IMG/VR virus record: IMGVR_UViG_2767802109_000003
Location: 15,691-79,690 of that record
Source: a virus
Lineage: Duplodnaviria; Caudoviricetes
Strand: one strand, 5' to 3'
DNA: 64,000 bases
In this document: piece after piece, positions 11,891 to 35,883 of the stretch
Numbering within the stretch: the first letter of the stretch is position 1
Layout: each line of letters starts with the position of its first letter
The notes under the pieces: generated by a model
Databases searched by the model: none
Told to the model about the DNA's origin: nothing
The model's input: the letters and a program-made list of their open reading frames with translations, nothing else
Position numbers and translations under genes: made by a program

Positions 11891-12655
11891 CTACCGAGGG
11901 AACCTTGCCAGCCAGGCAGGAAGCGGCTTGTCGTCACTCCAGTAGTGCATCAGCGCATACTTGAACGACAGCAAATCCACCTCGCGAACCGACTGCAAGG
12001 CTTGGGGGTCCTCCCGGCCGAGCTGCGCCAGCGCACGCTGCCGCTTGTCCCGGTACACCTGCGGGCGCTTCCGCTCGAACTGCAACAGCAGCCGACGCAC
12101 CTGATCGTCGTCGAGGTCGTTCGCCGACGCATACAGACGGTCGAGTTCCACCTGGCGTCGATCTTGCGCGCTCGTCGCCTCCCCCGCGCGAGCGGCAGCG
12201 AGCGCGGAGGAATGTTCGTCGCCAGCATCTTCTTCCTCCGTACTTCTTCCGTCACTACTTCCTGAAGAGGTACCGCTCACCGACGTCCCGCCGACGGACG
12301 TACCGTCCACCGACGTGCCGCCAGCGGTACCCCGGTCCCGGGGGATGTCGAACACCTCCAGCACAGTGACGAACCGCCCCCGCTCGCCCTTCTCTCGGCG
12401 CCGCACGATGTAGCCGGCCGCCTCCAGCTCGGAGAACGCCGACCGGAGGCCGCGCCGCCCCTCGCCCACGACATCACCCCGGTGCCGTCGGGCCCGGTCA
12501 GACAACGCGTCAGCGTTCGTTTCCCAGCCCGACGGACGGCTCAACAGCTCGGCCAGCACGCCGCGGGCGCAATACGTCAACCGGTCATCCCGCAGCAGCG
12601 CGTTCGGCAGGATCGTGAAATTGTCGACTGGCCGTGAACGACGGATCTTCAGCAC
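11891..12655 (-). CDS. Replication-initiator-like winged-HTH protein
   Basis: IRRSRPVDNFTILPNALLRDDRLTYCARGVLAELLSRPSGWE ... ELEAAGYI typical of O/DnaD-like initiators; repeat-rich linker. Confidence 0.72.
   Translation of the reverse strand: MLKIRRSRPVDNFTILPNALLRDDRLTYCARGVLAELLSRPSGWETNADALSDRARRHRGDVVGEGRRGLRSAFSELEAAGYIVRRREKGERGRFVTVLEVFDIPRDRGTAGGTSVDGTSVGGTSVSGTSSGSSDGRSTEEEDAGDEHSSALAAARAGEATSAQDRRQVELDRLYASANDLDDDQVRRLLLQFERKRPQVYRDKRQRALAQLGREDPQALQSVREVDLLSFKYALMHYWSDDKPLPAWLARFPR
12228..12330. repeat. Four degenerate 15-bp tandem repeats next to a pyrimidine-rich lower-GC tract (iteron-like)
   Basis: 12271-12330: TACCGCTCACCGACG/TCCCGCCGACGGACG/TACCGTCCACCGACG/TGCCGCCAGCGGTAC. 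Confidence 0.55.
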
Positions 12656-12797
12656 ACGCCACGCCCTATGAGACTCGGGCACGCCAAAACAATCATGAAT
12701 GTCCCTGGTGTTGCGCGGGCCGCACGCCCGCTGATCTGCGAAACGGCCGGACGGGGTCACCGTCCGGCCGATCGTGTGAACCGCTACGCTGCGCCGA

Positions 12798-13218: not shown

Positions 13219-13956
13219 TTATTCGGTGTCGACCTGCCAGGCCCCCGGCGGGTACACGTCCTCCCAGACCTCTAGCGGTCCGTCTTCATCGTGGAAGACG
13301 TTGACCACCACCAGAACGGACGCGGCCGACTCCGGGGGAAGATCGATGCCCAGCGCGTTGAGCTCGTCGTTCGAGATGAGGCGGGCAGTCCTGCGCTCCG
13401 GCGACCTTGTGACGTCGCGGCCGGTGCGCTCCTTGTAGAGGTCTTGCCACCAGCGTTCCGACGGTCCGTCGTTCAGCATCTCTGGCACGGTGCCGAGAGC
13501 GCGGACGTGGATGAACGAGGTGTCGACGGTGGAGGGGGAGCCTTCGCGGTGGTGCACTCGGCGTCGAATGACGACCTCGTCGTGGGGCTCCAGGTCGAGC
13601 AGCTGGGCGATGACCGGGTCCGCGACCGACCTCATGCCGGCCCAGTGGTTGCTGGAGGTTTCGCCGGGGGCGCGTAGTTCACCAGTGCGCGCCCTTCGTC
13701 CCAGCCGGGCGGCGCCAGTGACGGCCACGTTCGACTGGTGAGCCACGAAGGTGCCTGTCGAGTTCGCCTCCAGGAGACCTTCCGAGGTGAGCGTCTTGAA
13801 GGCCTGATCGATGGTGCCGGACGCTGCACCGGTCTCTTCTGTGATCTTTCGCCTGGAAGGCAGTCGCGTTCCGGGGGCGAGCGTTCCGTCTTGGATGAGC
13901 CGCCGGTAGTGCGCGGCGATCTCCAGTGCGGTACGCCGTGTGTTCGGCGGCGGCAT
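13219..13956 (-). CDS. GntR-family repressor with UTRA domain (KorSA/HutC-like)
   Basis: IQDGTLAPGTRLPS..TG..TI..A...L..EGLL..GTFV plus C-terminal UTRA; AGGAG RBS; divergent from transfer operon. Confidence 0.93.
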   Translation of the reverse strand: MPPPNTRRTALEIAAHYRRLIQDGTLAPGTRLPSRRKITEETGAASGTIDQAFKTLTSEGLLEANSTGTFVAHQSNVAVTGAARLGRRARTGELRAPGETSSNHWAGMRSVADPVIAQLLDLEPHDEVVIRRRVHHREGSPSTVDTSFIHVRALGTVPEMLNDGPSERWWQDLYKERTGRDVTRSPERRTARLISNDELNALGIDLPPESAASVLVVVNVFHDEDGPLEVWEDVYPPGAWQVDTE

Positions 13957-13983
13957 GAGTCTCCTGACTTGAGTTTTGGGTGA

Positions 13984-14036
13984 GGGGGCTTGCTTGCGTT
14001 CTAGATTAGCTCTAGATTGGGTTTCCGCAAGCCCCC
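13984..14036. promoter_or_regulatory. Divergent promoter/operator: TCTAGATT direct repeats inside a 10-bp inverted repeat
   Basis: TCTAGATT at 14000 and 14011; GGGGGCTTGC 13984 / GCAAGCCCCC 14027. Confidence 0.65.
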
Positions 14037-14051
14037 GCCGCAAGGCGAAAG

Positions 14052-14123
14052 GGCCTCGCCAGTGGTAGCGCATTGAGCGAGGCCAGGACCCTCGGCACCG
14101 GTGGTAGCGCACCGATGCCGAGG
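14052..14123 (+). repeat. Twin hairpins with identical GTGGTAGCGCA loop core in the operon leader
   Basis: GGCCTCGC..GTGGTAGCGCA..GCGAGGCC and CCTCGGCA..GTGGTAGCGCA..TGCCGAGG. Confidence 0.75.
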
Positions 14124-14156
14124 CAGCCAGCAACCTGACCGAACCAGGAGCTAGCC

Positions 14157-14462
14157 ATGCCGAACCTTACCCGTGCTCTAGAGCGCTCCGAGCGCAACCC
14201 GGCCCAAACCGCCCCGCTGAACCCGGCCGCTGCTGCGGCTCTGGCCCGTCTGGAGTCGAAGCTCGGCGCGGCCGATGTGCAGAAGGCTGCCGCCCGCTAC
14301 AGGGTGGCGTCGGCCGCGATCGCGAAGGCGTCCCAGGTGTTGGGGGCGCGAGCGTTGACGGAGGTCGAGGCCAGCGACTTCGACTACATGCAGGACGTGA
14401 TGCGCGAGGCGCGGACCGTCCTGGCCGCCGCGGGCCAGCTCGACTTGATCGGCGGCGTGTGA
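14157..14462 (+). CDS. Hypothetical protein, first gene of transfer operon
   Basis: AGGAG RBS; helical 101-aa ORF. Confidence 0.75.
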   Translation: MPNLTRALERSERNPAQTAPLNPAAAAALARLESKLGAADVQKAAARYRVASAAIAKASQVLGARALTEVEASDFDYMQDVMREARTVLAAAGQLDLIGGV

Positions 14463-14623
14463 TGGCGGCCCGCGAGATCCTCGCCGACTTCCCGGCTGGC
14501 AACCCGCGCGGGTCGTGGCCGGCGGAGGAGAAGGCGGCCGAGCTGACCGCACAGGGCCAGTCCGTCACCGTGACGATGGACCTCGACAGCGACCGGTTCC
14601 TGGTCGTGAGGGCCGAGTCGTGA
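14462..14623 (+). CDS. Small hypothetical protein
   Basis: TGATG coupling; MAAREILADFPAGNPRGSWPAEEKAAEL. Confidence 0.65.
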   Translation: MAAREILADFPAGNPRGSWPAEEKAAELTAQGQSVTVTMDLDSDRFLVVRAES

Positions 14624-14790
14624 GCGGCCTGGAGCCCAGCTTGGAGCTGGAGGCGGCGGTCGACGAGGTGTTCCTCGGCTGGTGGCCGGCCGACCTGATG
14701 GCCATCGTCCGCCAGCCCTACGAGCCCGGCGCCATCACCGCCTACGCCCATCGTGATGGCGGCGCGCACCTGCCGGAGCGTGTGTCGTGA
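14620..14790 (+). CDS. Small hypothetical protein
   Basis: GTGA coupling at both ends. Confidence 0.55.
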   Translation: MSGLEPSLELEAAVDEVFLGWWPADLMAIVRQPYEPGAITAYAHRDGGAHLPERVS

Positions 14791-15017
14791 CGGAGCGGGA
14801 GCGTCTGCAGCTGCTGCGGGCGAAGGCTGCGGAGATTCTGGCGCCGCTGCCGGCGTGGGATGGCGAGTCGCCGTCTGTGTGGGTGGTGGTCGTCGACCCT
14901 GAGACGCAGAACCGGATCGCCCATTGGCGGGTGCCTGCCGAGGTGGCGCCTCAGCCCGAGTCCCGGCCTCAGCCCCAGTCCCGTCGTCACCTGCGCGCTG
15001 TGCCGGACGCGTCGTGA
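14787..15017 (+). CDS. Small hypothetical protein
   Basis: GTGA coupling; C-terminal RHLRAV. Confidence 0.55.
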   Translation: MTERERLQLLRAKAAEILAPLPAWDGESPSVWVVVVDPETQNRIAHWRVPAEVAPQPESRPQPQSRRHLRAVPDAS

Positions 15018-15142
15018 GTCCGGCCGAGCAGGGCGCGACTGCGAAGGCGCTGGCCGAGCAGACCAGGCGGCACATGGAGGCGGCGAAGGCCGCTGCCGCT
15101 GCCGCTGAGGCCGCCCGACTCGCCGCCAACCGGCCCCGTTAG
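15014..15142 (+). CDS. Small Ala-rich protein
   Basis: GTGA coupling. Confidence 0.45.
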   Translation: MSPAEQGATAKALAEQTRRHMEAAKAAAAAAEAARLAANRPR

Positions 15143-15239
15143 GGCCCCTGATCCGCCGCGGTCGGCGGTGTCCAACCCCCGTCCCGCCGGCCGCGGCATT
15201 CCACCCCCGTTCCGGATTGACCGACTGAGGAGATCAGCC

Positions 15240-15458
15240 ATGTCCCGATACCTGGAAGAGTCCGCCGCCCTGCTGCGGAAGGCGTCGACGGAGCACGAGC
15301 GCAACTACGCCGACGGGTTGTACGTGAACTCCGCCAACGAGGGCCGTGAGCGGATCGCCCGAGGGTTCGCCGTTCTCGCCGCGATCGACAAGGGCCTGCT
15401 GCCCGCCGAGATCACGCAGGACGTGATCCGGGCGATCGTCGAGCACCCCACTGTCTGA
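15240..15458 (+). CDS. Hypothetical protein
   Basis: GAGGAG RBS, ATG 15240. Confidence 0.65.
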   Translation: MSRYLEESAALLRKASTEHERNYADGLYVNSANEGRERIARGFAVLAAIDKGLLPAEITQDVIRAIVEHPTV

Positions 15459-15502
15459 CCTGCACCCCCCACCCCGCTGTCGACCTGTTGAGGAGTACCC
15501 CC

Positions 15503-15724
15503 ATGCCTGTTTCCGCCCAGACCGACTGGCCTGACGGTGTCGTGGCCCGCTACCGGACCGTCGGCGGCGCGACCGTCGACCTGACCGACGACGCCGAGTG
15601 TGTCCGGCTCCTGTGTTCGGGCTGCGGCTTCGGTAATCGCCACGCCTACTACCCGCCGGCCGCCCACCGGCTCGCCGAGCGCCACGCCGGCAAGTGCCGC
15701 CAGGTGCCCCGCCCCACCGCCTGA
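15503..15724 (+). CDS. Small zinc-ribbon protein
   Basis: GAGGAG RBS; WPDGVVARYRTVGGATVD, CSGC, HAGKC. Confidence 0.7.
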   Translation: MPVSAQTDWPDGVVARYRTVGGATVDLTDDAECVRLLCSGCGFGNRHAYYPPAAHRLAERHAGKCRQVPRPTA

Positions 15725-15762
15725 CCCCGACCGTCCCGCCCATCCTCCGAGGGGAGGCCCCC

Positions 15763-16203
15763 GTGTTCGCCGACGACAACCCCGCTCTCAGCCCTCTGTG
15801 GTCCGGCCGCCGCGCCCCGTTCGTCGCCTTCCAGACCGCGCTCGGTGGCCTGGCCGGCGCCTACGACCTCCGTGACGGCCGCAGCACCGACCCGACGAGC
15901 CGGGTGTCCCTGTCCGTCGACGACTGGCACGGCTGGCCGATCGTGGCCGCTCGTCGGATCCCGGTCGCCGCGTTCGACGACCTGCTGTTCGCCGTCCAGC
16001 AGCTCCGGGACCGGAGATTCGACGAGAACCGGCGCTGCGGCTGGACGGGGCAGGTCAACGCGGACCGTCGGGCCGCCGCCCGGGACCGCTGGCTGGCGCG
16101 CGGCACCGACCCGGACGCGTTCCGGGCCGGGCTGCAGGCCGAGTACGAGGCGTCCGCCCGACTGCACGAGGACGCGGCCAGCCTCCTCGACGGCCCGCTC
16201 TAA
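15763..16203 (+). CDS. Hypothetical protein
   Basis: GGGGAGG RBS, GTG 15763. Confidence 0.65.
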   Translation: MFADDNPALSPLWSGRRAPFVAFQTALGGLAGAYDLRDGRSTDPTSRVSLSVDDWHGWPIVAARRIPVAAFDDLLFAVQQLRDRRFDENRRCGWTGQVNADRRAAARDRWLARGTDPDAFRAGLQAEYEASARLHEDAASLLDGPL

Positions 16204-16255
16204 CCGAACTTCAGCACCCCACCCCATCCCACTGCACCTGAAAGGGCCACCCCCA

Positions 16256-16495
16256 ATGTCTCCGTACCTGATCTCCGCCGACCTGGGTTCCACCGAGATC
16301 GGCCTGAAGGCCCGCACGATCACCAGCGTCGCCGACGCGCTGACCCTGTCGATCGCTGACCTGTTCGGCGAGTACGCCGACGCCCGCCGCTCCGGTGACC
16401 CGGCCCGGATGGCCGCTGTCCGCGACTACGCGGCCGGGCTGGACGCCGACCTCGTCGCCGAGCTCGACGGCTTCGACTACCCCGCCGCCGCCTGA
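16256..16495 (+). CDS. Hypothetical protein
   Basis: ATG 16256, GC3-rich codons. Confidence 0.6.
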   Translation: MSPYLISADLGSTEIGLKARTITSVADALTLSIADLFGEYADARRSGDPARMAAVRDYAAGLDADLVAELDGFDYPAAA

Positions 16496-16583
16496 CCCGC
16501 CCACCGCCGGGGCGCGGAAACCCCACCGCGTCCCGGCACCCCAGTCCCGCCCGACATCAACCGTCTGACCAGAGGAGAACCCG

Positions 16584-17090
16584 ATGCCCGACACCCTGGC
16601 CGCCAACCCGTTCACGGCCGACGCCGTAACCCGTCCCGCGGTGGAGAAGACCGGCCGCCGCCCCGACTTCTGGATCGGCTACTCCGGCGAGACCATCACC
16701 GGCCCGGAGGTCGCCGACTTCCTCGACGCCACCCGTGTCGTGCTGGAGAAGACCGGCTGGACCCGCAGTTACACCGACAACGACCCGGAGATCCCCGAGC
16801 CCGACGAGTCCCTCTCCATCAAGGCGATGCTGCTCACCCTGTGGAGGTACGCCCGCGAAGCTCTCGGGCAGGAGGGGCCGCTCACCCTCACCTACGGCAT
16901 GTACCGGGTCGACAACAACGACGCGAAGCGGGTCGCTGACCGGGTCCTCGATGCGCTCGTCGCCGCGTACACCGGCACGCCGACCGCGCAGGCCACCGCC
17001 TGGGCCGAGCGGAAGAACCGCACCTGGGGTGAGGTCCGGGACCTTCTGACTGCCGGCGTCGACCTCGCCCGCACCCACGGTCCCCGCTGA
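16584..17090 (+). CDS. DUF6197-like protein
   Basis: FLDATRVVLEKTGWTR..AWAERKNRTWGEVRDLL pattern; GAGGAG RBS. Confidence 0.65.
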   Translation: MPDTLAANPFTADAVTRPAVEKTGRRPDFWIGYSGETITGPEVADFLDATRVVLEKTGWTRSYTDNDPEIPEPDESLSIKAMLLTLWRYAREALGQEGPLTLTYGMYRVDNNDAKRVADRVLDALVAAYTGTPTAQATAWAERKNRTWGEVRDLLTAGVDLARTHGPR

Positions 17091-17242
17091 TGCCCGACGA
17101 CCGCTGCCCCCAGTGCGAGGAGCACGCCGAGCTCCACAAGGGCAACTGGCTCGGCCTTGGTGATCAGACCAAGCCGTGCCTGCCGTGCGAGGACCACGCG
17201 AAGAACGGCTGCCCTGACCGCCGCAAGATCCGCTGGTGGTGA
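17090..17242 (+). CDS. Small Cys/His protein resembling small linear-plasmid proteins (pRL2-8-like)
   Basis: CPQCEEHA..CLPCEDHAKNGC..WW; TGATG coupling. Confidence 0.5.
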   Translation: MPDDRCPQCEEHAELHKGNWLGLGDQTKPCLPCEDHAKNGCPDRRKIRWW

Positions 17243-17335
17243 CACCCCCCAGCCCTGGCCGACCGATCACGGGTCTACCGCCTCGAAGCAGGCCAGGGCG
17301 CTCCGCACCACCCAACTCCAACGAGAGGAAGATCC

Positions 17336-17536
17336 ATGAGTTTCAAGAAGGGCGACCTGGTGGTCGTGGTCGCTGCGGGCCCGGAGAACGCGGGCACGGT
17401 CGGCAAGACCGGCATCGTCGTCGACGGCGGGGCCCTGTCCGGTGGCGACGTGTCCGTCAAGGGGATCGACCACCGCGTCGTCGAGGCGATCAAGGGCTAC
17501 CGGTCGTACATGCCCAACCAGCTGCGGAAGGCGTGA
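17336..17536 (+). CDS. Small SH3/KOW-like protein
   Basis: FKKGDLVVVV..GKTGIVV; GAGGAAG RBS. Confidence 0.65.
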   Translation: MSFKKGDLVVVVAAGPENAGTVGKTGIVVDGGALSGGDVSVKGIDHRVVEAIKGYRSYMPNQLRKA

Positions 17537-17727
17537 CCGCCGTGCACGCCGGGAGCGCAGACGAGCTGCGCGAGAAGGAGCGCCGGTCGCAGGAGATCGG
17601 CCGGAAGATCGCCGACCTGCTCAACGAGGCAGCCGCCATCGCCCCCGGGGCCGTGTCGGCGAACGTGACCGGGCTCGGCTGGCGGATTCGCGGCGCAGGC
17701 GGCGGCTTCCGCGCCGACACGAGGTGA
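17533..17727 (+). CDS. Small hypothetical protein
   Basis: GTGA coupling. Confidence 0.55.
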   Translation: MTAVHAGSADELREKERRSQEIGRKIADLLNEAAAIAPGAVSANVTGLGWRIRGAGGGFRADTR

Positions 17728-17732
17728 CCGCC

Positions 17733-17930
17733 GTGCCGATCACGTTCCGCAAGAGCTTCCGGATCCTGCCCGGCGTCCGCATCAACATCAACCGCCGGTC
17801 CTGGTCGATCACCGTCGGGCCGAAGGGCGGACCGAAGCGCACCTGGTCCAGCACCGGACAGACCACCACCAGCTACGACCTCCCCGGACCCTTCGGCTAC
17901 CGCACCACCCGCCGCCGCAACCCCCGCTGA
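17733..17930 (+). CDS. DUF4236-domain protein
   Basis: ITFRKSFRILPGVRININRRSWSITVG signature. Confidence 0.8.
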   Translation: MPITFRKSFRILPGVRININRRSWSITVGPKGGPKRTWSSTGQTTTSYDLPGPFGYRTTRRRNPR

Positions 17931-17944
17931 TCGAAAGGAACGCC

Positions 17945-18073
17945 ATGCCCACGAAGGACAAGTGCTGGGTCTGCGGACGACCCGGAGCCGAACCGGAGCG
18001 GACGCTCCTCGGCTTCAAGAAGCCCGTATGCCCGCCCGGCAAGGGCTGCTCCAGCAACCAGACAAAGCGCTAA
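17945..18073 (+). CDS. Tiny zinc-finger-like protein (42 aa)
   Basis: AAGGA RBS; CWVC..VCPPGKGC. Confidence 0.5.
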   Translation: MPTKDKCWVCGRPGAEPERTLLGFKKPVCPPGKGCSSNQTKR

Positions 18074-18106
18074 CACCCACCTCAACTCAGAAGGGACCAC
18101 GTAGTC

Positions 18107-19513
18107 ATGACTGCCAGCCCGCCGAAGGTAAACGGCCACGCCCGGCCGCCGGCCGTGCCGGCCCTGCAAGTACTGGGGGACTGGCAGCCCGTCGCGCCCG
18201 AGACCAAGCCCACCGCCGACAGTGCTAACCCACCCGTCGCTGAGCCGTCCACCACGCCCGGCCCCGACAGCGACCTGGTCGAGCAGGCCAAGGCCGAAGC
18301 GATCCGGGCGCAGGCGTGGGCCGAGTCCGAGGAGCGCCGCCTCGCCGCCGAAGTCGAGAAGGAAGCCGCGCTCAAGCGGGCCGCCGCCGAAGCCGAAGCG
18401 ATCCGGATCAAGGCCGAGGAAGACGCCCGGAAGCAGCGCCTCGCCAATGACCGTGCCGAACGCAAGGCCGCTGAGGAGCAGGCGGCATCCCAGGCGCGGA
18501 TCGCCGAGCACAACCGGCGCCGCGACGAAGCCGACCGGGCCCGGGAGCGTGCCGCCCGGGAGGATGCCGAGCAGCAGCAGTCGGAAACCGAGAAGGCCGA
18601 GGTTGTCGCCAAGTCCAGCAAGCGGTGGCGCCGCGTCGCCCTCGGCTTCTACGCCCTGTGCGCCGCAGTCGCCCTGCCCGTGCAGATGGCCGCCTTCTGG
18701 GACCCGAACGCCAAGTACCTCCTCGTCGCCCCGATCTTCATCGAAGTGATCGCCCTCGTCGCTCTCGTCGGCGCCGCCGCAGCGGTGACCGACGGGCGCC
18801 CGCAGTGGCACTACCGGCTCGTCGCCTGGGCCGGCGCCCTCACCGCCGCCACCATCAACGCCGTACACGGGCTGGGTGCGTTCGATGCCGCCACCGCATT
18901 CGGCACCGCCCTCGCCTCCGTCGCAGGGCCCGGCATGTGGGACCTCCACGAGCACGGCCGGATCCGCAAGCGCGACGGCAAGCCGACCTGGCGCGAGCAC
19001 CGCGCCGCAGCGAAGGCAGCTAAGCGGGCCGCCGCCGAGAAGGCCGCGGAGGAAGAGAAGCGGGCCGCCGAGAAAGAGGCCGCCGACGAGGCCGCCCAGG
19101 AGGCCGCGAAGCAGCTCGCGGAGCTGCGCCAGGCCGAGTTCGAAGACGTGTGGAAGCACGCCCGGAAGCTGGCCGCGGCACTCGGCGAAACGACCGTCAC
19201 CGAGGCCGTGTGGCGACGTGCGCACAAGGACATCCGCGGCGCCGACCCGGGCGAGGACGCGGAGACGATCCGGGCCCGCAACGCCGCCGAAGCAAGGGTC
19301 GAAGCGGCCCGCCAGAAGCGCTCCGTGAACACCCTCAGCAAGACCACGAACGCACAGCGTGCGATCCAAATGAACGGCTCCCCGCGCCGCTCCTCGTACA
19401 AGCCGGTTCCGCCGCGTCGGACACCCGGCGACACGCCCTCGTACCACCCGCTTGCCCGCCGTGCGAACGGTGAGACGAAGCGCCGCTCGAACGCCGCCAA
19501 GAACGCCGACTAA
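18107..19513 (+). CDS. Spd-like (DUF2637-type) plasmid-spread membrane protein
   Basis: Coiled coil, four TM helices, second coiled coil; two genes upstream of TraB. Confidence 0.75.
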   Translation: MTASPPKVNGHARPPAVPALQVLGDWQPVAPETKPTADSANPPVAEPSTTPGPDSDLVEQAKAEAIRAQAWAESEERRLAAEVEKEAALKRAAAEAEAIRIKAEEDARKQRLANDRAERKAAEEQAASQARIAEHNRRRDEADRARERAAREDAEQQQSETEKAEVVAKSSKRWRRVALGFYALCAAVALPVQMAAFWDPNAKYLLVAPIFIEVIALVALVGAAAAVTDGRPQWHYRLVAWAGALTAATINAVHGLGAFDAATAFGTALASVAGPGMWDLHEHGRIRKRDGKPTWREHRAAAKAAKRAAAEKAAEEEKRAAEKEAADEAAQEAAKQLAELRQAEFEDVWKHARKLAAALGETTVTEAVWRRAHKDIRGADPGEDAETIRARNAAEARVEAARQKRSVNTLSKTTNAQRAIQMNGSPRRSSYKPVPPRRTPGDTPSYHPLARRANGETKRRSNAAKNAD

Positions 19514-19537
19514 CCCATCCCTTGGAGTGATCAGATT

Positions 19538-20128
19538 ATGAACGTCACCCTTCGTCGTATCGCCGTGTCGGGCAGTGCCGCGGTCGCCGTCCTCGGCGGT
19601 GCCGCCACCATCACCCTGGCCGCCCCCTCGCCGGCTTCCGCCGCCGTCTCCGAGCACGTCGTCGAGCGGGCCGTCACCGCCCCCGTCACGCTGCCCGACG
19701 GGCGCACGATCCGGATCACCGGCATGGGCGGCTACGGCCACCACGCCACCGACAAGCACATCGCCGTCGTCGCCGGATTCAAGGCCGACACCGAGCCCGG
19801 CAGCAGCGACGGCATCACCAACGGCCTCACCCCCGACGGCGGCACCGGCGCGCAGCTGACCAACCCGCAGCAGCAGGCCCCGGCCGGCACGCAGCAGCAG
19901 TACCAGACCCAGGCGGGCGGGGGCACGATCGGCGTCACGGTCGCTGTCGGCGTCGGACTGCTGATCGGCGTGATCGTCATGCTCAAGCGGGGCTCAATGA
20001 AGTTCGTCCAGGCCGCCGCGTGCATCGCCCTCGGCGTGTACCTCGCCCCCACGTTCGTCGGCCCGCTCGTCCAGCAGCTCGGCGGATCCGTCGGCGTCGG
20101 TCTCGGCAACGTCTGGTCCGGCTTCTAG
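19538..20128 (+). CDS. Membrane protein with signal peptide; C-terminus resembles small TraB-associated AICE membrane proteins
   Basis: Signal peptide ending ASA; C-term hydrophobic-LKRGSMKFVQAAACIALGVYLAPT. Confidence 0.7.
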   Translation: MNVTLRRIAVSGSAAVAVLGGAATITLAAPSPASAAVSEHVVERAVTAPVTLPDGRTIRITGMGGYGHHATDKHIAVVAGFKADTEPGSSDGITNGLTPDGGTGAQLTNPQQQAPAGTQQQYQTQAGGGTIGVTVAVGVGLLIGVIVMLKRGSMKFVQAAACIALGVYLAPTFVGPLVQQLGGSVGVGLGNVWSGF

Positions 20129-20190
20129 GCCACACCCAACCCGCGGGGCCCCAACCGGGGCCACGCCCCGCCCCAGAAAGGACTGGCCCT

Positions 20191-22386
20191 GTGGCCACCG
20201 AGACCGAGCCCGTCGAGCAGCAGATCCCGCCCATGCCGTCCGAGCCGCCCACCATCCCCCGCAAGGAGCGGATCAAGGCCGCGTTCGCCGTACAGCGCGC
20301 CCACGCCTCCGCCCGCACCAAGGACTGGCTCGCAGGCGGCGACCTCGACCACGTCGACATCATCCAAGCCGCCACCGAGCGGAAGAACCGCAAGCACGCC
20401 GAGAAGGTCGCCAACCAGCAGCGGATCGTCGCCGAAGCCCACGGCCGCCTCCACCACGCCAAGATGCAGGCCGAGAACGGGGAGACGGTCAGCGCCGCCA
20501 CCCTGTCCAGCCTCGGAGGGCGCGCCGCCGCCGAAGAAGCCAAGCTGTCCGCGCTGCAGGCCACCATCGTGCTGCCGCCCACCGACCGCGAAATCAACAA
20601 CGTGCGCAGCGGCAAGAAGGCCGGGCGCGCTGCGATCCTCGCCGGAGGCGGACTCGCCGCGGCGCCCGTTCTCGGCGCCACCATCGAGCAGGCCGCCACC
20701 GGTCAGCCCATGCTCCTCGCCGCCCTCGGCACCGCCGCCGGCTACGGCTGGTATCTCGTGTCCCGCCCTTTCGTCGCCGGCCAGCCTGCACCTGCCCCGA
20801 CCATGGGGGAGCAGCCGCTGGCCTCCGCGGTGGTCAACCTGGCGAAGGACGGGCTGCAGCCGGGGCAGCGTGAGTTCAACGCCCCGCCCCCGCCCGCTCT
20901 CACCGTCGAACAGTTGGAGGACGCCCTCCGTGCAATCGGCGAGATCCGTGGCGAGGAGAAGATCCAGATCCTGGCTGTGCCGCAGAGGGAGAAGGACGGC
21001 AACACCACCGTCGTGTTCGACCTGCCGCCGCGGACGACCGTCGCCGAACTGAAGAAGAAGCTGCCCAAGCTCGCCGGGGCTCTCGGCCGGGACGTGTCCA
21101 TGGTCGACGTGACCAAGGCCGGCACCGAGGCCCGCGCCTCCCTGTGGCTGACCGACCAGGACGCGTTCGAGAACACCCGGCCGTCGCCGCTCATCAAGGC
21201 CCCGACCCAGCTGGATGCGTGGAAGGACGGGGTGCCGGTCGCCTGGAACAAGCGGGGCGCCACCATCCGTCTCGCGATCAACAACCAGTCCTACGTCATC
21301 GCCGGCATGACCCGCTCCGGCAAGGGCGTCGGCGCGTCCAACCTGGTCGTCGGCACCAGCTTCGACCCGCGGATCAACCTGCGGATCGTGGCAGGGAAGA
21401 ACAACGGCGAGTGGGACCCCTACGCCAAGACGGGCGTCGCCTCCACCTACTTCAAGCCCAACCCCGAACGGCTCCTGGCCTTGCTGCGGGCGCTGCTCGC
21501 CGACAAGGACCGGCGGGAGCGGGACCTGGGCGTACTGGGGAAGTCCAAGCTGGTCGGCCCGGTCATCGAACAGATCGGCGGCATAGAGCTGCTGGTCATC
21601 GACGAACTGGCCACCTACACCCGCCCCGGGAAGCCCCTGCGGGACGAGATCCTGGAAGCGCTGATCGAGCTGTCCGCCGTTGCGGCGGGCGCCGGAATCC
21701 TCATGGTGCTGATCACTCAGTACCCGGAGGCCGATGTCATCCCGCAGGCCCTCGCCATGAACTGCGGCGCCCGGTGGGCGATGCGCGTCGAGAACGCCAC
21801 CCAGTCCAACGCGATCCTCGGCGGCGGCCAGGCCAGCGCCGGGAGGGACGCGTCCAAGTTCGATCCGCCGCGGCCCGGCTTCGGCTGGCTCGTCAACCCG
21901 TTTGCCGGCGTCACCGACCTTGCCCGCTCTTTCGACCTGGACGAGGACGAGCGCGGCGAGATCACGATGCTACTGGAGAAGGCCGCGAAGATCCGCGAGG
22001 GTGCGGGGCGTCTGGCCGGGCAGTGGGACGACCCCATCGAGAAGCATCTCCTCAACGCCACCGGCCTGTCCTCCACGGCCGGCGGACCTAAGCGGGACGG
22101 CGTGCCGGGGCGGAACGTCCTGCAGTTGACGCCCGAGCAGCGTATGCAGATGGACGCCTGTCGGGGCTGCCTGATCGCCATGAACGACCTTGGCCGTGAC
22201 GTGGCTCAGTTGGACGAGATGGCCGAGCTGATCGGTGAGTCGATGACGCCTGACCGGTTGGGTGAACTGCTGCGCGCGGCGGGCGCCGGTTCGACCGTGA
22301 AGGTCGTCATCGAGGGCCGCGGCCGGGTGAACGGCTACCGCCGGGCGCCCATCGTCGACGCTCTCCAGTTCCTCGAAGGCGCCTAG
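20191..22386 (+). CDS. traB: TraB-type FtsK/SpoIIIE conjugal DNA translocase
   Basis: N-terminal TM pair, Walker A AGMTRSGKG, Walker B LLVIDE, LITQYP, C-terminal wHTH-like domain; AAAGGA RBS before GTG 20191. Confidence 0.88.
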   Translation: MATETEPVEQQIPPMPSEPPTIPRKERIKAAFAVQRAHASARTKDWLAGGDLDHVDIIQAATERKNRKHAEKVANQQRIVAEAHGRLHHAKMQAENGETVSAATLSSLGGRAAAEEAKLSALQATIVLPPTDREINNVRSGKKAGRAAILAGGGLAAAPVLGATIEQAATGQPMLLAALGTAAGYGWYLVSRPFVAGQPAPAPTMGEQPLASAVVNLAKDGLQPGQREFNAPPPPALTVEQLEDALRAIGEIRGEEKIQILAVPQREKDGNTTVVFDLPPRTTVAELKKKLPKLAGALGRDVSMVDVTKAGTEARASLWLTDQDAFENTRPSPLIKAPTQLDAWKDGVPVAWNKRGATIRLAINNQSYVIAGMTRSGKGVGASNLVVGTSFDPRINLRIVAGKNNGEWDPYAKTGVASTYFKPNPERLLALLRALLADKDRRERDLGVLGKSKLVGPVIEQIGGIELLVIDELATYTRPGKPLRDEILEALIELSAVAAGAGILMVLITQYPEADVIPQALAMNCGARWAMRVENATQSNAILGGGQASAGRDASKFDPPRPGFGWLVNPFAGVTDLARSFDLDEDERGEITMLLEKAAKIREGAGRLAGQWDDPIEKHLLNATGLSSTAGGPKRDGVPGRNVLQLTPEQRMQMDACRGCLIAMNDLGRDVAQLDEMAELIGESMTPDRLGELLRAAGAGSTVKVVIEGRGRVNGYRRAPIVDALQFLEGA

Positions 22387-22567
22387 ACATCCTCGGACAG
22401 TGGGGTAGTTCATCCCGTTTAGTCCGCTGGTCAGCGCACGGACGGAGGGTGGGCCCGACCTAGGGACGGCCCACCCCGTGTCCGGCACCAATCCGACCCC
22501 CATACCTGCACAAACAGTGCACCTGTCTGGGTGTAAACCACCACAAACCAGAAACGGAGACCATCCT
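22387..22567. other. Candidate clt (cis-acting locus of transfer)
   Basis: Noncoding region right after traB with four AAAC repeats, CGGAC repeats and GGGTGGGCC/GGCCCACCC inverted repeat. Confidence 0.35.
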
Positions 22568-22975
22568 ATGCCCAAGCAGTGGAGCGCCGGCCAGGCGAAG
22601 AAGTTCGCCCGCGAATTGAAGCTCGGACAGTCCTACTACGTCGTCTACGACATCAGCCGGCGGTGCGCCCCCTACGAGGACTCGCAGCTGTACGGGGAGT
22701 ACCGGTTCACGGACCGGCTGCCGTTCACCGGCAACCCGTGCACGGAGTCCGGGTACAGCGCGGTGACCCTGTGCCAGACCCGCGGCCCGGTCTACGACGC
22801 TCCGCCGCGCGGCATGCGGAACATCGCCGACCCGTCCCCTCAGGTTGCGGGCCCGCTGGGCTCCAACGACTACGAGGGGATCTTGGACGAGGACGAGTTG
22901 CGCGGCTTGGAGAAGCAGGCGGCTCAGGGCTCCAACCCGCGCACCCGGCGGCGGCTCGGCGGCTGGCGCGTCTGA
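22568..22975 (+). CDS. Hypothetical protein
   Basis: GGAG RBS, ATG 22568. Confidence 0.7.
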   Translation: MPKQWSAGQAKKFARELKLGQSYYVVYDISRRCAPYEDSQLYGEYRFTDRLPFTGNPCTESGYSAVTLCQTRGPVYDAPPRGMRNIADPSPQVAGPLGSNDYEGILDEDELRGLEKQAAQGSNPRTRRRLGGWRV

Positions 22976-23166
22976 TGATCACCGACCGGGAGTTGATCCG
23001 GGCGTTCGTGGCCGCACGCAGGCGCGGCGACACCGAGGCAGCCCGGGAAGCCGAGCGCATCGCCCGCCACCGGTTCATCGACGACCCACTGACCACCAAC
23101 GCCTACCAGGCAATCGTCGACATCCAAGCCGCAGTGCCGCCAGGAACCCCGCGGCAAGACACCTGA
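22975..23166 (+). CDS. Small helical protein (AARRRGD motif)
   Basis: TGATG coupling; resembles next gene. Confidence 0.6.
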   Translation: MITDRELIRAFVAARRRGDTEAAREAERIARHRFIDDPLTTNAYQAIVDIQAAVPPGTPRQDT

Positions 23167-23186
23167 CCCAACCGAAGGAGATCACC

Positions 23187-23369
23187 GTGCAGTACACGCA
23201 CCAGTCCGTGAAGGACTACATCGCGGCGAAGAAGCGCGGCGACCGTGCCACCACCGACCGGATCATCCGCGAGGTCACGGCCCGCTTCGACACCCGCACC
23301 ACCGACGGCAGCGAGGCCGCCGAACTCCTCGACGCCACCATGACCGTCCGCTTCGGCGAGGGGGAGTGA
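23187..23369 (+). CDS. Small helical protein (AAKKRGD motif)
   Basis: AAGGAG RBS, GTG 23187. Confidence 0.7.
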   Translation: MQYTHQSVKDYIAAKKRGDRATTDRIIREVTARFDTRTTDGSEAAELLDATMTVRFGEGE

Positions 23370-23560
23370 CTGCGATGCCGACCCGTGAAGCCCTGCTCGA
23401 CGCCGCCGCTTCGGCGATGAGGCGAGGCCTGGAGTTGAACGCTCTGGGCGCTGACCCTTCACACCCGGACTACGCGAAGGTCATGCCCGCGCAGCATGCG
23501 GCAGCCGCAGCCGGTATCAGCCCGGCCGAAATCTGGCAGGCGGCCACCCAGCCGAAGTAG
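23366..23560 (+). CDS. Small hypothetical protein
   Basis: GTGA coupling. Confidence 0.55.
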   Translation: MTAMPTREALLDAAASAMRRGLELNALGADPSHPDYAKVMPAQHAAAAAGISPAEIWQAATQPK

Positions 23561-23566
23561 CTCCGC

Positions 23567-23611
23567 CCGGGGCGCCCCTCGAATGCCTGGCAGCGACCAG
23601 GGGCGCCCCGG
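23567..23611. repeat. Perfect 13-bp intergenic hairpin
   Basis: CCGGGGCGCCCCT / AGGGGCGCCCCGG. Confidence 0.7.
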
Positions 23612-23651
23612 TCCCCACGCCCACCCGAAGATCGACGAGGAGAACCCCATC

Positions 23652-24155
23652 ATGCCCACGCTCGCCCACGCGCCCGCAAGTCCGCAGGCGCCGCCCGTCC
23701 TCGACCTGGACGCCCGACTTGCCCTGGTCGACGCCGCAATGACGGTCCGCCTGGCCGAGGCCGCGGTCGCGTTCGAGGTGAATACGGCGCACCTGCCCGG
23801 CGCCGACCCGATCCCGCACATCGCCGAGACGCCCCTGCCCGCACCGTCCCCGTACCGGACTCCGCTGGCCGACCTGCTGCACCGGGCCCGGCTGCGGATC
23901 GAGGCCGACGGCTGGTGCCGCGACGCGGTGTTCGACGAGTCGGGCGCCGTCTGCCCGATCCGGGCGATCCGGCTCGAAGCCCGCGGTGACCGGGGCCTCG
24001 CCCACGACGCCTGCGTCGCCCTCCTCGACGCCATCCAGCGGCAGTTCGCCGGCGCCGAGACGATCCCCAGCTGGAACGCCCAGCAGACCAGCGGCGGGCC
24101 CGTCCTCGCAGCATTCGACTGTGCCGCCAGCCGCGCCCACGCCCGCAACCAGTAG
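23652..24155 (+). CDS. DUF6197-like protein
   Basis: LHRARLRIEADGWCR..GAVCPIRAIR..IPSWN..VLAAFD. Confidence 0.7.
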   Translation: MPTLAHAPASPQAPPVLDLDARLALVDAAMTVRLAEAAVAFEVNTAHLPGADPIPHIAETPLPAPSPYRTPLADLLHRARLRIEADGWCRDAVFDESGAVCPIRAIRLEARGDRGLAHDACVALLDAIQRQFAGAETIPSWNAQQTSGGPVLAAFDCAASRAHARNQ

Positions 24156-24165
24156 GAGAGACCCC

Positions 24166-24363
24166 ATGTCGAAGCCCACCCCGGAACAGATCCAGGAAGC
24201 AGGCCGCCAGTTGCAGCGCGGTGGATTCCTCGGCCGCGGCAGCCAGAAGAAGGCCGACCAGGTCATCGAGGAAGCCGTCGCCGCCGGCATGGACCGTCAG
24301 GCCGTCGCCATGGCCATCCTTGGCGCCGCCGCCGACTACGAGCCCCGACGCTGGGCCAGGTAG
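24166..24363 (+). CDS. Small hypothetical protein, last gene of transfer operon
   Basis: AGGAG RBS, ATG 24166. Confidence 0.7.
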   Translation: MSKPTPEQIQEAGRQLQRGGFLGRGSQKKADQVIEEAVAAGMDRQAVAMAILGAAADYEPRRWAR

Positions 24364-29518: not shown

Positions 29519-29665
29519 GTGCCCGTCAGGTCCAGGGCGCAATGGCGCTGGATGTTCGCCAACAAGAAGGCGTTCGCCCACCGCTGGGCCCGCTCAAGGA
29601 AGCGCCGCTACGGCAAGACCACCGGCTACCGCACCCTCCCCGCGCGGAAGCGAGCCCGCCGCTAG
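29519..29665 (+). CDS. Very basic 48-aa protein (not in ORF track)
   Basis: AAGGAGG RBS; MPVRSRAQWRWMFANKKAFAHRWARSRKRR..; stop overlaps portal stop (CTAG). Confidence 0.7.
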   Translation: MPVRSRAQWRWMFANKKAFAHRWARSRKRRYGKTTGYRTLPARKRARR

Positions 29666-31368
29666 GCAGCAGCCAGCCCCCGCGAGCCCCCGCCCTCCTC
29701 TTCGTCCTCGGTCTCGTCCTGGCCCTCGTCCGATCCGGCCTCGGTACCGTCACTGTCGGCTTCGTCCTCGTCGTTCGGCTCCTCAGGCTCCTCGCCGCCG
29801 CCGGTGTTGAACGGGTCGCCGGCCGGGGCCATGGACTGCTTGTCGTCGCGGATGCGCCGCACCTCGGCCATGATGTCGGCGTCGTCCCAGGACGGCTCCC
29901 GCATCTTCACCTTCATGAACGTGGAGATCGCCCCCGCCGAATCCAGCAGCGACAGAGTCCGTGCGGTCGCTTCCGGATCGGGTTGCACCGCCTGCGGCCA
30001 CGACGCGGTCAGCTCAGCCGCAGGATCGACACCCTTCGCGCGGCAGTGCCGCACGTCGACCATCATCATCGTCGTCAGATGGTCGAGCAGCGCCGGCCGC
30101 TGGTACAGGATCTTCGTGCCGCGGGTCGTCAACGACTCTTCCTTGCGGGCCGTCACCTCGGTCGCCGTCGTCGCGACCGTCCCCTCCTCGCCGAAGCTCT
30201 GCGCGGAGTAGCCGGCGCTCGAGAGGATCTGGCGGCGCAGGGCCTTCGCGGTCCGTTCGTGCTCCTCAACCCGGATCTTGAACTGGATGTCGGTGATGGA
30301 ATCCTTCGCGTCGCCGCTGTCCAGCATGTTCAGGGCGACCTGCACCTCCTGCTCCAGGTTGTAGGAGCCGCCCGTGCCCGGCCCGTCGGTGTCGAGCATC
30401 GACTGCGGGATCAGCAGCCGGGCCTTACCCAGCCGTAGGTCCCTCATCCAGCTCGTCCAGGATTCGTCGAGGGCATCCATGAGCGGCTCCACCCCAGACA
30501 GGTCTGACCGGCCGAGCGGCGCCGTGTTCGGCACCCCGTCCCACACCCGGTTCGGCAACACATTCGGTACATGCGTGATCAGCAGCCGGCCGATGCCCGT
30601 CGACTGCCGGCCCTGACTGTCGGTGCGCGCCACCAGGTACTCGGTGTCCGGATGGTCGGCCAGACTGTCCGCCCGCATCCCGAGTACACCAGGGCCGCCC
30701 TCGTACAGGCCGTACTCGATCGCCCCCGGCGTGTGGAACTCCAGCAGCCGCCACACCTTCGACGTGTCCGCAAGAGGCGCCAGCTCCCGCCACACGATCG
30801 CCTCCGCCAGCTCACCCCACCGCCACGTCGGCACCACCGCCTCAGGGGCGATCACATCCGTCCACGGCCGCGGGCGCAGCGTCGTATCCCACACCACCCG
30901 CAAGTAGACGTTCGACAGGCCCGCCGTCAACTCCGCGGCCTCCCGCAGCTTCGCGTGGCCGCGGTCGTCGAGGTAGCGGCCGATCTGCGCTGTCGTCGTC
31001 TTCGCGGTGGCCTTGTCGGTGGAGTCGGCGTCGACCGTCACCTGCGGCACGTCCGCCCACAACAGGTTCGCCGACAGCTCGGCGATGTCCGCGGCGATCG
31101 GCACGTGCAGCTTGGCGGCCTGCTGGCCGGGCGTGGCGTCCTGCCCCCAGAAGGTACGCAGCTCGTCACCGCCAGCAGCACGCCGCTGGTCCACGTCGAA
31201 GAACTGGCGGGCCACAGCGTTGGAGCGGTAGTTCGTGGGCCCGCCGTACACGGCGGCCAGATGATCTGTGTTGCCGGAGTACCAGGCCCGCCACATGTCC
31301 ATGTCGGCGTGCGGGATCTCCAGGGCAGGCGGCGGCCAAGTGGTGTTCCCGGACGGGGGCAGTGGCAT
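29662..31368 (-). CDS. Phage portal protein (SPP1 gp6-like)
   Basis: 568 aa, follows terL; acidic C-terminal tail; LHVPIAADIA, ILSSAGYSAQSFG. Confidence 0.9.
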   Translation of the reverse strand: MPLPPSGNTTWPPPALEIPHADMDMWRAWYSGNTDHLAAVYGGPTNYRSNAVARQFFDVDQRRAAGGDELRTFWGQDATPGQQAAKLHVPIAADIAELSANLLWADVPQVTVDADSTDKATAKTTTAQIGRYLDDRGHAKLREAAELTAGLSNVYLRVVWDTTLRPRPWTDVIAPEAVVPTWRWGELAEAIVWRELAPLADTSKVWRLLEFHTPGAIEYGLYEGGPGVLGMRADSLADHPDTEYLVARTDSQGRQSTGIGRLLITHVPNVLPNRVWDGVPNTAPLGRSDLSGVEPLMDALDESWTSWMRDLRLGKARLLIPQSMLDTDGPGTGGSYNLEQEVQVALNMLDSGDAKDSITDIQFKIRVEEHERTAKALRRQILSSAGYSAQSFGEEGTVATTATEVTARKEESLTTRGTKILYQRPALLDHLTTMMMVDVRHCRAKGVDPAAELTASWPQAVQPDPEATARTLSLLDSAGAISTFMKVKMREPSWDDADIMAEVRRIRDDKQSMAPAGDPFNTGGGEEPEEPNDEDEADSDGTEAGSDEGQDETEDEEEGGGSRGLAAA

Positions 31369-31380
31369 GACGGTCTCCTT

Positions 31381-32631
31381 CTAGGCTGCGAGGGCGAGCT
31401 GGCGCTGCCACAGGGGTCTGGTCGTGAAAATGCCGTAGCGGAGGGCGTCGACGCCATGGTCAGCAACCTTCAACGGCTGCTCCTCGCCGCGCAGGGCGGC
31501 CTTGTCGTCCCAGCTGTAGCCGCCGATCTCCTGGATCAGGGCTTCGCAGGACTTGTGGACGAGGAGCTTGTTCGAGGCGAGCAGCGCGGCCACGGTGCGG
31601 ATGCCGTCCATGACGTCGTTCTTCGCCGGGGTCGGGGTGAGCCGGTCCCGCTTCAACTGGGTGACGAAGGAGGCGGCGGAGGGGTCGACGGTCACGAACT
31701 GGGGACGAACGGCGCCGATGCCCGGGACCTCGGACAGCCACCCCCGGAGCCGCTGCGAGTACTCGGTGTCGGTGAGCTGCTTCTTCGTCTGCCGCGCCTC
31801 GTAACGCCACTCCGCCGCCGCGTACAGGCGCCGGTCGCGCCCCAAGCCCAGCAGGACTGCATGGAACGGGTTCGACGTGCCGTAGTCCACGCCGAGGCTG
31901 ATCCACTTGTGGATGCCGTCCCGAGGCAGCGACGAGACGATATGCCGGTCGCGGTCCCACGAGTCGTAGATCGCACCCTCCGCGGCCACCCACTCGCCCA
32001 GGATGAACCGCCGGTAGAAGAGGCCCTCGTGGGAGGCCTTCATGTCGGCGACGTAGTCCTCGTCGAGGAACGGATTGTCGTCGATCGTGAACGAGAACCT
32101 GCTCACCGGCTTCCTGCCGGCCTGCGACAGCCAGTCCCGCATGAACCAGTGCGCCGGATTGTCCGGGTTGGTGGTGCACAACAGCTGGGCGCCGCGCACC
32201 GACATGCGACCGTACAGCTGCTCGAAGAAGATTTGCGGGACGAGGGTGACCTCGTCGACGTAGGCGCCGCACACCGTCATACCGCGGATCTTCGGTTCGG
32301 ACTTGGCGTCGTTGGCGCCGATGACGTGCACCACCCGGCCCAGAATGATCGCCGTGGGCGCGCCAGGCGTGTAGTGGATCAGGGACGCGATCGGCCCGAA
32401 CAGGGCCGGATCCTGCATGGGCAAGAACAAGTTGCGGTGGATGGTTTGCGACGTCTTCCCGATCATCACTAGCTCGCCTGTCGTCGGCGCATTCGCAATG
32501 AAGATCAACCACTTGAGCAGAGACGCGATCGTCTTGCCCGACCGGATCGCCCCCTCCCAGCACGAGATTTTGGTCGTCGACTCGGCGACAGACCGGATCT
32601 GCTTCCGGGACAGGGGCATCGTCTCGAGCAC
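31381..32631 (-). CDS. terL: Terminase large subunit (PBSX type)
   Basis: Walker A EGAIRSGKT, Walker B AYVDE, TTNP, nuclease GVDYG..DP..DHGVDALRY. Confidence 0.96.
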   Translation of the reverse strand: MLETMPLSRKQIRSVAESTTKISCWEGAIRSGKTIASLLKWLIFIANAPTTGELVMIGKTSQTIHRNLFLPMQDPALFGPIASLIHYTPGAPTAIILGRVVHVIGANDAKSEPKIRGMTVCGAYVDEVTLVPQIFFEQLYGRMSVRGAQLLCTTNPDNPAHWFMRDWLSQAGRKPVSRFSFTIDDNPFLDEDYVADMKASHEGLFYRRFILGEWVAAEGAIYDSWDRDRHIVSSLPRDGIHKWISLGVDYGTSNPFHAVLLGLGRDRRLYAAAEWRYEARQTKKQLTDTEYSQRLRGWLSEVPGIGAVRPQFVTVDPSAASFVTQLKRDRLTPTPAKNDVMDGIRTVAALLASNKLLVHKSCEALIQEIGGYSWDDKAALRGEEQPLKVADHGVDALRYGIFTTRPLWQRQLALAA

Positions 32632-32633
32632 GG

Positions 32634-34965: not shown

Positions 34966-34983
34966 GCCACTTAGGAGCCTCCG

Positions 34984-35835: not shown

Positions 35836-35883
35836 TCTTCCGGCGTGATCCTCGCCGCCTCTTCTGACCCCGGGAGCCCTCCC

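Follow-up and report, generated by a model that had tools for sequence, protein, structure and literature searches.

A plasmid-type TraR–SpdB2–TraB transfer region in an integrated Streptomyces siphophage, a candidate conjugative prophage

The DNA considered here, called the window, is a stretch of 64,000 nucleotides from a tailed virus (Duplodnaviria; Caudoviricetes; IMG/VR record IMGVR_UViG_2767802109_000003, positions 15,691 to 79,690), which corresponds to positions 67114-131113 of contig C8 (258,836 bp) in a Streptomyces-like genome of 8.39 Mb. Within it, a block at 13.2-24.4 kb encodes a GntR-type repressor, a homologue of the membrane protein SpdB2 and a DNA translocase of the TraB type; this module is placed between predicted early (recombination/replication) genes and packaging genes. 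The window is wholly internal to an 85,217-bp prophage in a Streptomyces chromosome. Genes were called from third-position GC content (GC3), and relatives, designated G or L with a number, were used for synteny when they had enough flanking DNA. Coordinates are given in Table 1.

Table 1. Features of the window (positions counted from its first letter; ORF, open reading frame; TM, transmembrane)
Feature	Positions	Strand	Basis or description
Winged helix-turn-helix (wHTH) gene like replication initiators/DNA-binding proteins (289 aa)	11891..12760	-	PHROG 1456 DNA binding protein, 1.4e-20
TraR/Kor-like GntR-UTRA (HutC-type) repressor	13219..13956	-	Pfam GntR 3.5e-10, UTRA 1.9e-10; longest ORF to 14133
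Divergent control region, candidate tre-like operator	13957..14156	.	Two exact direct GTGGTAGCGCA copies at 14062 and 14101, 39 bp apart
About 12 small ORFs heading the operon, including DUF6197 (16584-17090)	14157..17727	+	GC3 calls; DUF6197 1.9e-8
SpdB2 homologue (468 aa)	18107..19513	+	Coiled-coil N-terminus, hydrophobic core (residues 175-280), charged C-terminus
196-aa protein, signal-like N-terminus and two C-terminal TM helices	19538..20128	+	Position of pSVH1 orf108
TraB-type FtsK-like double-stranded DNA (dsDNA) translocase (731 aa)	20191..22386	+	N-terminal helices and TM, alpha/beta motor, C-terminal winged helix
clt-like region	22387..22567	.	Homologous to the post-traB region of relatives with its 4-6 CCCGGAC repeats; here four degraded nCGGAC copies and a GC-rich hairpin
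Distal operon genes: conserved 135-aa protein, small ORFs, second DUF6197 (23583-24155)	22568..24363	+	Gene calls, Pfam, relatives
Portal (568 aa), large terminase (416 aa), small-terminase-like protein (171 aa)	29662..33149	-	Terminase_6N 2.8e-15; weak SPP1_portal match
Scaffold-like protein, capsid, connectors, tail tube, tape measure, baseplate-type proteins, fibre	34162..53119	+	Head and long non-contractile tail
Lysis cassette: endolysin/amidase and small membrane proteins	56018..58145	+	PHROG 1493 endolysin 3e-31; matches pQHH and pZL12 lysis regions
88-aa gene and 380-aa XerC/D-like tyrosine recombinase (60648-61790)	60206..61790	+	Third GTGGTAGCGCA copy upstream, at 60206

Repressor, membrane proteins, translocase and cis sites

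The 731-aa ORF is intact and contains Walker A (GMTRSGKG) and Walker B (LLVIDE) motifs. For this protein, as for the SpdB2 homologue, single-protein searches against Pfam, NCBIfam and PDB sequences returned nothing or sub-threshold matches (the NCBIfam plasmid_TraB model scored it at only 23.5 bits, against a cut-off of 800), and profiles and folds were required to identify it. PHROG 1358, 'FtsK/SpoIIIE-like', matched it at 3e-28, FtsK structures aligned across both Walker motifs, and its identity reached 43% with pZL1 TraB and 28% over 380 aa with pSVH1 TraB (E 4e-28), the C-termini of the latter pair aligning through an RVxGY motif. A family of 512 relatives (E<=1e-10) was gathered from 1.8 billion representatives and 62 of them were aligned. 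Residues G377, K378, E472 and Q510, which belong to the GK, DE and TQ motifs, were invariant in all 62, and 38 of the 62 reached PF01580 (FtsK_SpoIIIE). The family profile scored pZL1 TraB at 692 bits and pSVH1 TraB at 542, compared with 125 for EccC, 97-99 for the Tra proteins of the same genome that are of the type found in integrative and conjugative elements of actinomycetes (AICEs), and 94 for the host FtsK. On these scores the protein belongs with plasmid TraB and not with chromosomal FtsK, a distinction that the initial annotation of this DNA had put forward for checking.

The AlphaFold (AF2) model of the translocase (predicted local distance difference test score, pLDDT, 86) shows long N-terminal helices with a hydrophobic stretch, an FtsK-type motor and a C-terminal winged-helix-like domain. 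Its top Foldseek matches were FtsK motor domains (E 9e-15, TM score 0.68), followed by the conjugation coupling protein TcpA. The C-terminal domain is predicted as helix-helix-strand-strand over residues 648-730 with pLDDT >90, and the hydrophobic helices are predicted within residues 132-191. Together with the intact ORF, the Walker motifs and the PHROG match, this motor fold upholds the FtsK/SpoIIIE ATPase recognised at first reading. The third residue of its GKG Walker A ending is G and not S/T; since G also occurs in 27 of the 62 representatives, including pZL1 TraB, it is a conserved variant and not a lesion. A tblastn search of 50,697 phage records gave no actinophage match to TraB.

The 468-aa protein encoded just upstream of traB is homologous to SpdB2. 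Its family profile aligned to a SpdB2/DUF2637 set, composed of the pSVH1 and pZL1 proteins and four proteins of the same genome, with a probability of 98.6% (hhalign, E 1.3e-15, 218 columns), and pSVH1 SpdB2 matched the protein itself in a local blastp search (E 1e-5). Language-model neighbours agree with this identity, and 72-83% homologues carry the names SpdB2 or DUF2637. The place of the gene is also that of spdB2 in pSVH1 and pZL1. The Spd/DUF2637-like protein of the initial annotation is therefore borne out by the family-profile alignment, not by the single-sequence Pfam search. The second membrane protein that had been proposed is found in the 196-aa ORF with its two hydrophobic C-terminal helices. 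It had no family match in Pfam/PHROG searches, and it adjoins traB also in G261, L013, L015 and L066-L068.

The repressor is 28% identical to pSVH1 TraR (E 1.5e-11) and 33% identical to pZL12.80. Its domains lie on the minus strand in the ORF 13219-14133; homologues of 244-249 aa suggest that translation probably begins at the ATG at 13956, for a protein of 245 aa. The plus-strand operon starts at the ATG at 14157, confirming that a GntR/UTRA repressor diverges from the operon. A GntR helix-turn-helix joined to a UTRA domain, a divergent tra operon and intergenic repeats are the attributes of a TraR/Kor regulator, and all are present. The small ORFs at the head of the operon, whose layout is conserved in relatives, possibly encode Spd-type proteins. 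The operon also holds two DUF6197 paralogues, and this family recurs in the cassette of pQHH, a Streptomyces 'plasmid' described below, and after traB in every relative examined.

Two kinds of putative cis site accompany these genes. The 64 kb contain the 11-mer GTGGTAGCGCA three times without mismatch, and the paired copies in the control region resemble the paired direct repeats that TraR binds in pSVH1. The remaining copy belongs to a TAGCGCATAA...TTATGCGCTA palindrome upstream of the XerC/D-like recombinase region. Sharing of the 11-mer suggests a possible joint control of the transfer genes and the recombinase.

The other candidate is a clt locus. The pSVH1 TraB recognition sequence (TRS) is GACCCGGA (PMC5133688), and the CCCGGAC motif of the relatives overlaps it. 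The non-coding stretch that follows traB is homologous across relatives, and G261, L013, L015, G273 and G321 carry three to six CCCGGAC copies within the 250 bp after the gene, which is the densest cluster in each 22-32-kb region (overall density, 0.3-0.7 copies per kb). Arrays are intact in the relatives examined at 70-83% TraB identity (L068, L015, L013 and G261). A k-mer scan within the window found no 7-8-bp repeat cluster near traB, the clt signal emerging only through the relatives, and no covariation between the TraB C-terminus and the repeat variants was seen among the relatives compared. As a clt, the post-traB array is therefore a strong candidate in the family and an uncertain one in the window, where it is degraded without a matching change of the TraB C-terminus. 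Separately, in the interval 3457-3936 (480 bp, no confident gene) CCCGGAC stands three times and CCGGAC five times, and nowhere in the prophage are such motifs packed more densely; the three-copy CCCGGAC cluster at 3.5-3.9 kb was set aside, as it was not significant once the number of scanning windows was allowed for.

An 85-kb prophage containing the module

Perfect direct repeats of 87 bp at C8 51712-51798 and 136842-136928, recovered also in the flanking pieces (L006 4598-4684 and L007 5729-5815), bound the 85,217-bp element. The right copy falls within the 3′ end of uppP, the gene for undecaprenyl-diphosphatase, and a 464-aa integrase-like gene with a weak Arm-DNA-binding match abuts the left copy (attL). 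In the relatives G009 and G012, an SDR gene, a 59-aa gene and uppP are adjacent, with the attachment (att) sequence within uppP. Because this is the empty site, the whole 85,217-bp element is a single insertion. Phage-type genes continue past both ends of the window. No tRNA gene was found in the 64 kb, whose G+C content is 70% with a dip at 11-14 kb. Among the called genes of the element there was no ParA-type P-loop gene, nor any match to the ParAB proteins of pQHH or pZL12. An extrachromosomal state with partition genes, as expected of a phage-plasmid, is thus not what was found: the element is integrated at uppP. Two initiator-like genes are present.

The packaging proteins are 67-85% identical to those of pQHH, and the large terminase is of the PBSX/T4 type. 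The tape measure protein (40273-46086, 1913-1937 aa) includes M23 peptidase and SLT transglycosylase domains. The DNA upstream of the window encodes a beta-clamp-like protein, a YqaJ exonuclease, RecT, methylases, HNH and a replication initiator. With terL, portal, capsid, tape measure, tail, lysis and integrase genes and att sites, the element is, by its gene content, a temperate phage of the siphovirus morphotype. The head, tail and lysis genes, described as intact in the initial annotation, are present as ORFs syntenic with those of 88-93-kb Streptomyces phage-plasmids, whereas the closest isolated phages reach only ~52% terL identity.

Several further observations concern these phage genes. 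The portal, terL and terS-like genes are divergent from the capsid and tail genes, an unusual split of the late region seen also in pQHH, G261 and L014. The 994-aa tail fibre (49256-52240) has pectate-lyase-like beta-helix domains and is a possible depolymerase. A C-5 cytosine DNA methylase at 1567-2544 is 49% identical to pZL12.27c, and another methyltransferase lies upstream of the window. Just right of the window, near the right end of the prophage (L007 120-1620, C8 131233-132734), there is a LexA-like fragment together with a homologue of Ku that shares 56% identity with the Ku of pQHH.

The transfer module recurs in this phage setting. Joint occurrence of terL and traB, which the initial annotation had suggested looking for, was found in six of the seven relatives with enough flank, where the cassette lies 5-10 kb upstream of phage packaging genes belonging to at least four head types (PHROGs detected the terL of several relatives that the Pfam terminase models missed). 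In G261 and L014 the head type is that of the window, with terL 91-93% identical; L015 and G321 have an HK97-type portal, accompanied in L015 by an S78 protease; G273 and G370 have other terminase/portal families. Close TraB homologues (69-94% identity) are numerous, many of them on 88-91-kb contigs, and of 400 Streptomyces species genomes that were sampled, no fewer than 13 had a TraB match at E<=1e-50, a figure that is a floor. All ORFs of the module are intact, and several species share them at 88-94% conservation.

Around the module itself, the repeat search (10-31 kb) returned chance-level matches only, in GC-rich coding DNA. The sole strong repeat remains the 87-bp pair around the 85-kb element, so that the att-like repeats flanking only the module, which the initial annotation had asked about, are absent. 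No integrase was found in the 11.8-24.4 kb block or beside it, and a nested AICE, which would bring its own integrase and att sites bracketing a rep-tra block, is thus not what this region contains. Given this lack of a module-only att or integrase, and the synteny with packaging genes in relatives, the cassette is a native phage module and not a nested AICE. As judged from these comparisons, Streptomyces temperate phages and phage-plasmids form a mosaic group in which the cassette is a regular constituent.

Proposed transfer and competing explanations

In pSVH1, TraR, the Kor repressor, represses one long transcript running from spdB3 to traB (Thoma et al. 2015, PMC4447253). Of its proteins only TraB is crucial for transfer, whereas intramycelial spreading depends on the pore-forming SpdB2 and on the Spd proteins (PMC4447253). 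Since the prophage carries the plasmid set of genes for repressor, pore protein and DNA pump, it may spread without virus particles. We lean, with moderate confidence, towards an integrated temperate siphophage with a native pSVH1-type transfer region, which would spread both by virions and by TraB-driven transfer.

We infer the following course of regulation and excision-coupled transfer, with the degraded array taken as clt. In the lysogen, the repressor bound to the two GTGGTAGCGCA repeats would hold the toxic operon off. Upon derepression, TraB would assemble in the membrane at hyphal tips or cross-walls, bind through its C-terminal winged helix to the short repeats near traB on the excised circular phage genome, and pump dsDNA into the neighbouring hypha or compartment. 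SpdB2 and the Spd proteins would then spread this DNA through the recipient mycelium, and it would re-integrate at uppP. A broader proposal, which we advance more tentatively and hold at somewhat less than even, is that of a widespread lineage of integrative Streptomyces phages with two routes, virions and TraB dsDNA transfer, in which the prophage, once excised, would act like an AICE of giant size and the GntR repressor would co-control the transfer operon and the recombinase through the shared 11-bp operator.

Several results weigh against a phage that moves by conjugation. After traB, zero or one CCCGGAC and four or five CGGAC cores are left in the window and in the relatives nearest to it (88-94% TraB identity), and four CGGAC in 181 bp is unexceptional for DNA of this composition. 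The 289-aa wHTH gene, overlooked earlier, lies immediately downstream of the repressor and shares its strand, and its homologues adjoin the cassette in G261 and L014; its matches to the replication initiation protein families PHROGs 270, 4707 and 428 range from 4e-10 to 3e-6, and this Rep-like gene weakens the earlier interpretation. Taken singly, the 731-aa protein had no match to Pfam FtsK_SpoIIIE, and the 468-aa protein was missed by Pfam DUF2637 (PF10935). The GKG Walker A, a conserved variant, leaves the activity of the ATPase a predicted one. The integrase identity of the 464-aa gene beside attL is unconfirmed beyond its weak Arm-binding match. In G023, helicases but no packaging genes were found within 20 kb of the cassette. 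Finally, transfer by the element, as by its TraB clade, is a prediction from genes. The 'conjugative phage' interpretation is thus partly supported: what the module is, and that it is part of the phage, hold up, and the degraded clt-like array and the Rep-like gene weaken it. The associated claim that the module has neither a Rep nor a separate integrase holds for the integrase, none being in or beside the block, and fails for the Rep, given the wHTH gene.

Other explanations of the module deserve consideration. It could serve the phage cycle within a single mycelium, moving replicating or newly injected phage DNA across septal cross-walls, so that the infected or lysogenised zone widens, or helping to bring the genome into spore compartments, without inter-mycelial conjugation. 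In pSVH1, TraB with SpdB2 and the Spd proteins does drive intramycelial spreading through septa. The module also has early genes for neighbours and is kept in phages whose virion modules differ, and FtsK-like genes occur in isolated, non-plasmid Streptomyces phages, for which the authors propose roles in development or replication. We consider a purely intramycelial role rather unlikely, as the same TraB suffices for inter-mycelial transfer in pSVH1 and pIJ101 and pZL12 transfers conjugally, although sequence by itself does not separate spreading from mating. A decaying or domesticated remnant is a less probable explanation still. Here the genes would perhaps act in plasmid/phage exclusion or host DNA mobilisation, self-transfer having been lost with an eroded clt, as the GKG Walker A and the loss of CCCGGAC in the window and its closest relatives, but not in L068, L015, L013 and G261, might indicate. 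All ORFs are nevertheless intact and conserved at 88-94% in several species, GKG is common to pZL1 TraB and 27 of the 62 representatives, and the degraded-repeat version is itself conserved in a subclade, which fits an altered recognition sequence equally well.

That the module is an independent, self-moving AICE or plasmid inserted in the prophage is very improbable. The Rep-like gene beside the repressor and the dip in GC content at 11-14 kb would suit such an insertion, as would the resemblance of rep, traR, spd and traB to a small plasmid backbone. No above-chance direct repeats flank 10-31 kb, however, no integrase accompanies the block, and many phages, extrachromosomal phage-plasmids among them, have the block at this very position although their head modules differ. 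The rep-like, traR, spd and traB genes look rather like a plasmid backbone long fused into a phage. Among these possibilities, we retain the integrated siphophage with a native transfer region as our working interpretation.

Significance and relation to known elements

It is usual to regard phages and conjugative elements as two distinct vehicles. Phage-plasmid passages of a 2025 review of plasmid mobility describe cell-to-cell transfer as phages, and the term 'conjugative phage' is absent from the review. Should the cassette prove active, resistance based on receptors would be bypassed by virion-free spread, and the movement of prophages, and of any host DNA with TRS clusters, in soil mycelia would be affected. 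A Streptomyces prophage offers a tractable system in which to test this, the genus being non-pathogenic.

The ~90-kb 'plasmids' of databases are also flagged here as phage-plasmids. NZ_CP046906.1 (pQHH), NZ_CP109440.1 and NZ_CP107973.1, circular Streptomyces 'plasmids' of 88-93 kb, share ~73% DNA identity with the prophage from portal to tail and 85% protein identity in terL. With NZ_CP107843.1, they are typed as non-mobilizable in PLSDB and contain the portal/terL/capsid block of this phage. From their genes, these four 88-93-kb PLSDB entries are probably unrecognised phage-plasmids, NZ_CP046906.1 being the one examined in full. pQHH has a GntR/UTRA gene, a large P-loop ATPase and membrane proteins at the equivalent position, the proteins of which barely align with those of the module. 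Like the group of three as a whole, it differs from the element by its ParAB and DciA genes and by replicating as a plasmid, and it also has a tyrosine recombinase; with complete tailed-phage gene sets in addition, it is a phage-plasmid.

AICEs such as pSAM2 and SLP1 resemble the element in being integrated and flanked by att sites, in their Kor-type GntR repressor and Tra and Spd genes, and in their excise-transfer-reintegrate logic. They are 9-24 kb long, lack virion genes, usually reside in tRNA genes and have shorter Tra proteins. The AICE-type Tra proteins of the same genome differ from TraB in the family-profile scores given above. The Streptomyces phages Jaresh, AndoPrime and Geonosis are annotated with an FtsK-superfamily ATPase of their own, and the papers on them report no linked TraR, SpdB2 or clt. 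In an incomplete literature search, no work was found that ties the FtsK-like genes of prophages to TraR, SpdB2 and clt.

The transfer region itself is closest to that of pSVH1, with homologous TraR, SpdB2 and TraB. The order of genes in pSVH1 (traR, spdB3, spd79, spdB2, orf108, traB, clt), like that in pZL1, is the order of the module: repressor, small ORFs, spdB2, small ORF, traB. pSVH1 is a 12.6-kb rolling-circle plasmid without phage genes, and the module departs from it in its GKG Walker A, its longer operon (~20 genes), the unrelated protein between spdB2 and traB and its degraded repeats.

A conjugative phage in Streptomyces is already known from pZL12, which the literature counts among well-characterised plasmids and whose record, GQ919031, is filed as Streptomyces phage ZL12. 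Its replication, its transfer locus and its plasmid/lytic phage cycle were reportedly characterised experimentally, in 2010 work by Zhong and colleagues in J Bacteriol. Like the prophage, pZL12 measures ~90 kb and has a GntR regulator divergent from an operon that contains a membrane protein and a ~725-aa FtsK-like ATPase, and packaging, head, tail, lysis and recombinase genes follow the cassette. As TraB homologues, pZL12.71c and the 976-aa ATPase of pQHH were rejected: no homology emerged beyond P-loop motifs, and they are positional analogues only. The virion genes of pZL12 also differ, with only scattered proteins matching, and pZL12 is an autonomous plasmid with ParAB, whereas our element is integrated with an 87-bp att and lacks a ParA-type P-loop gene.

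What is new beyond pZL12 is that a pSVH1-type TraR-SpdB2-TraB cassette with TRS-like repeats appears as a standard module of many Streptomyces prophages, that it occurs in chromosomally integrated prophages as well as in plasmid forms, and that it lies beside several unrelated virion modules. By its predicted genes, the prophage is thus set apart from pZL12 by its chromosomal att site and integrase, the absence of partition genes, a TraB of the pSVH1 family and a cassette that is widespread with several head types.

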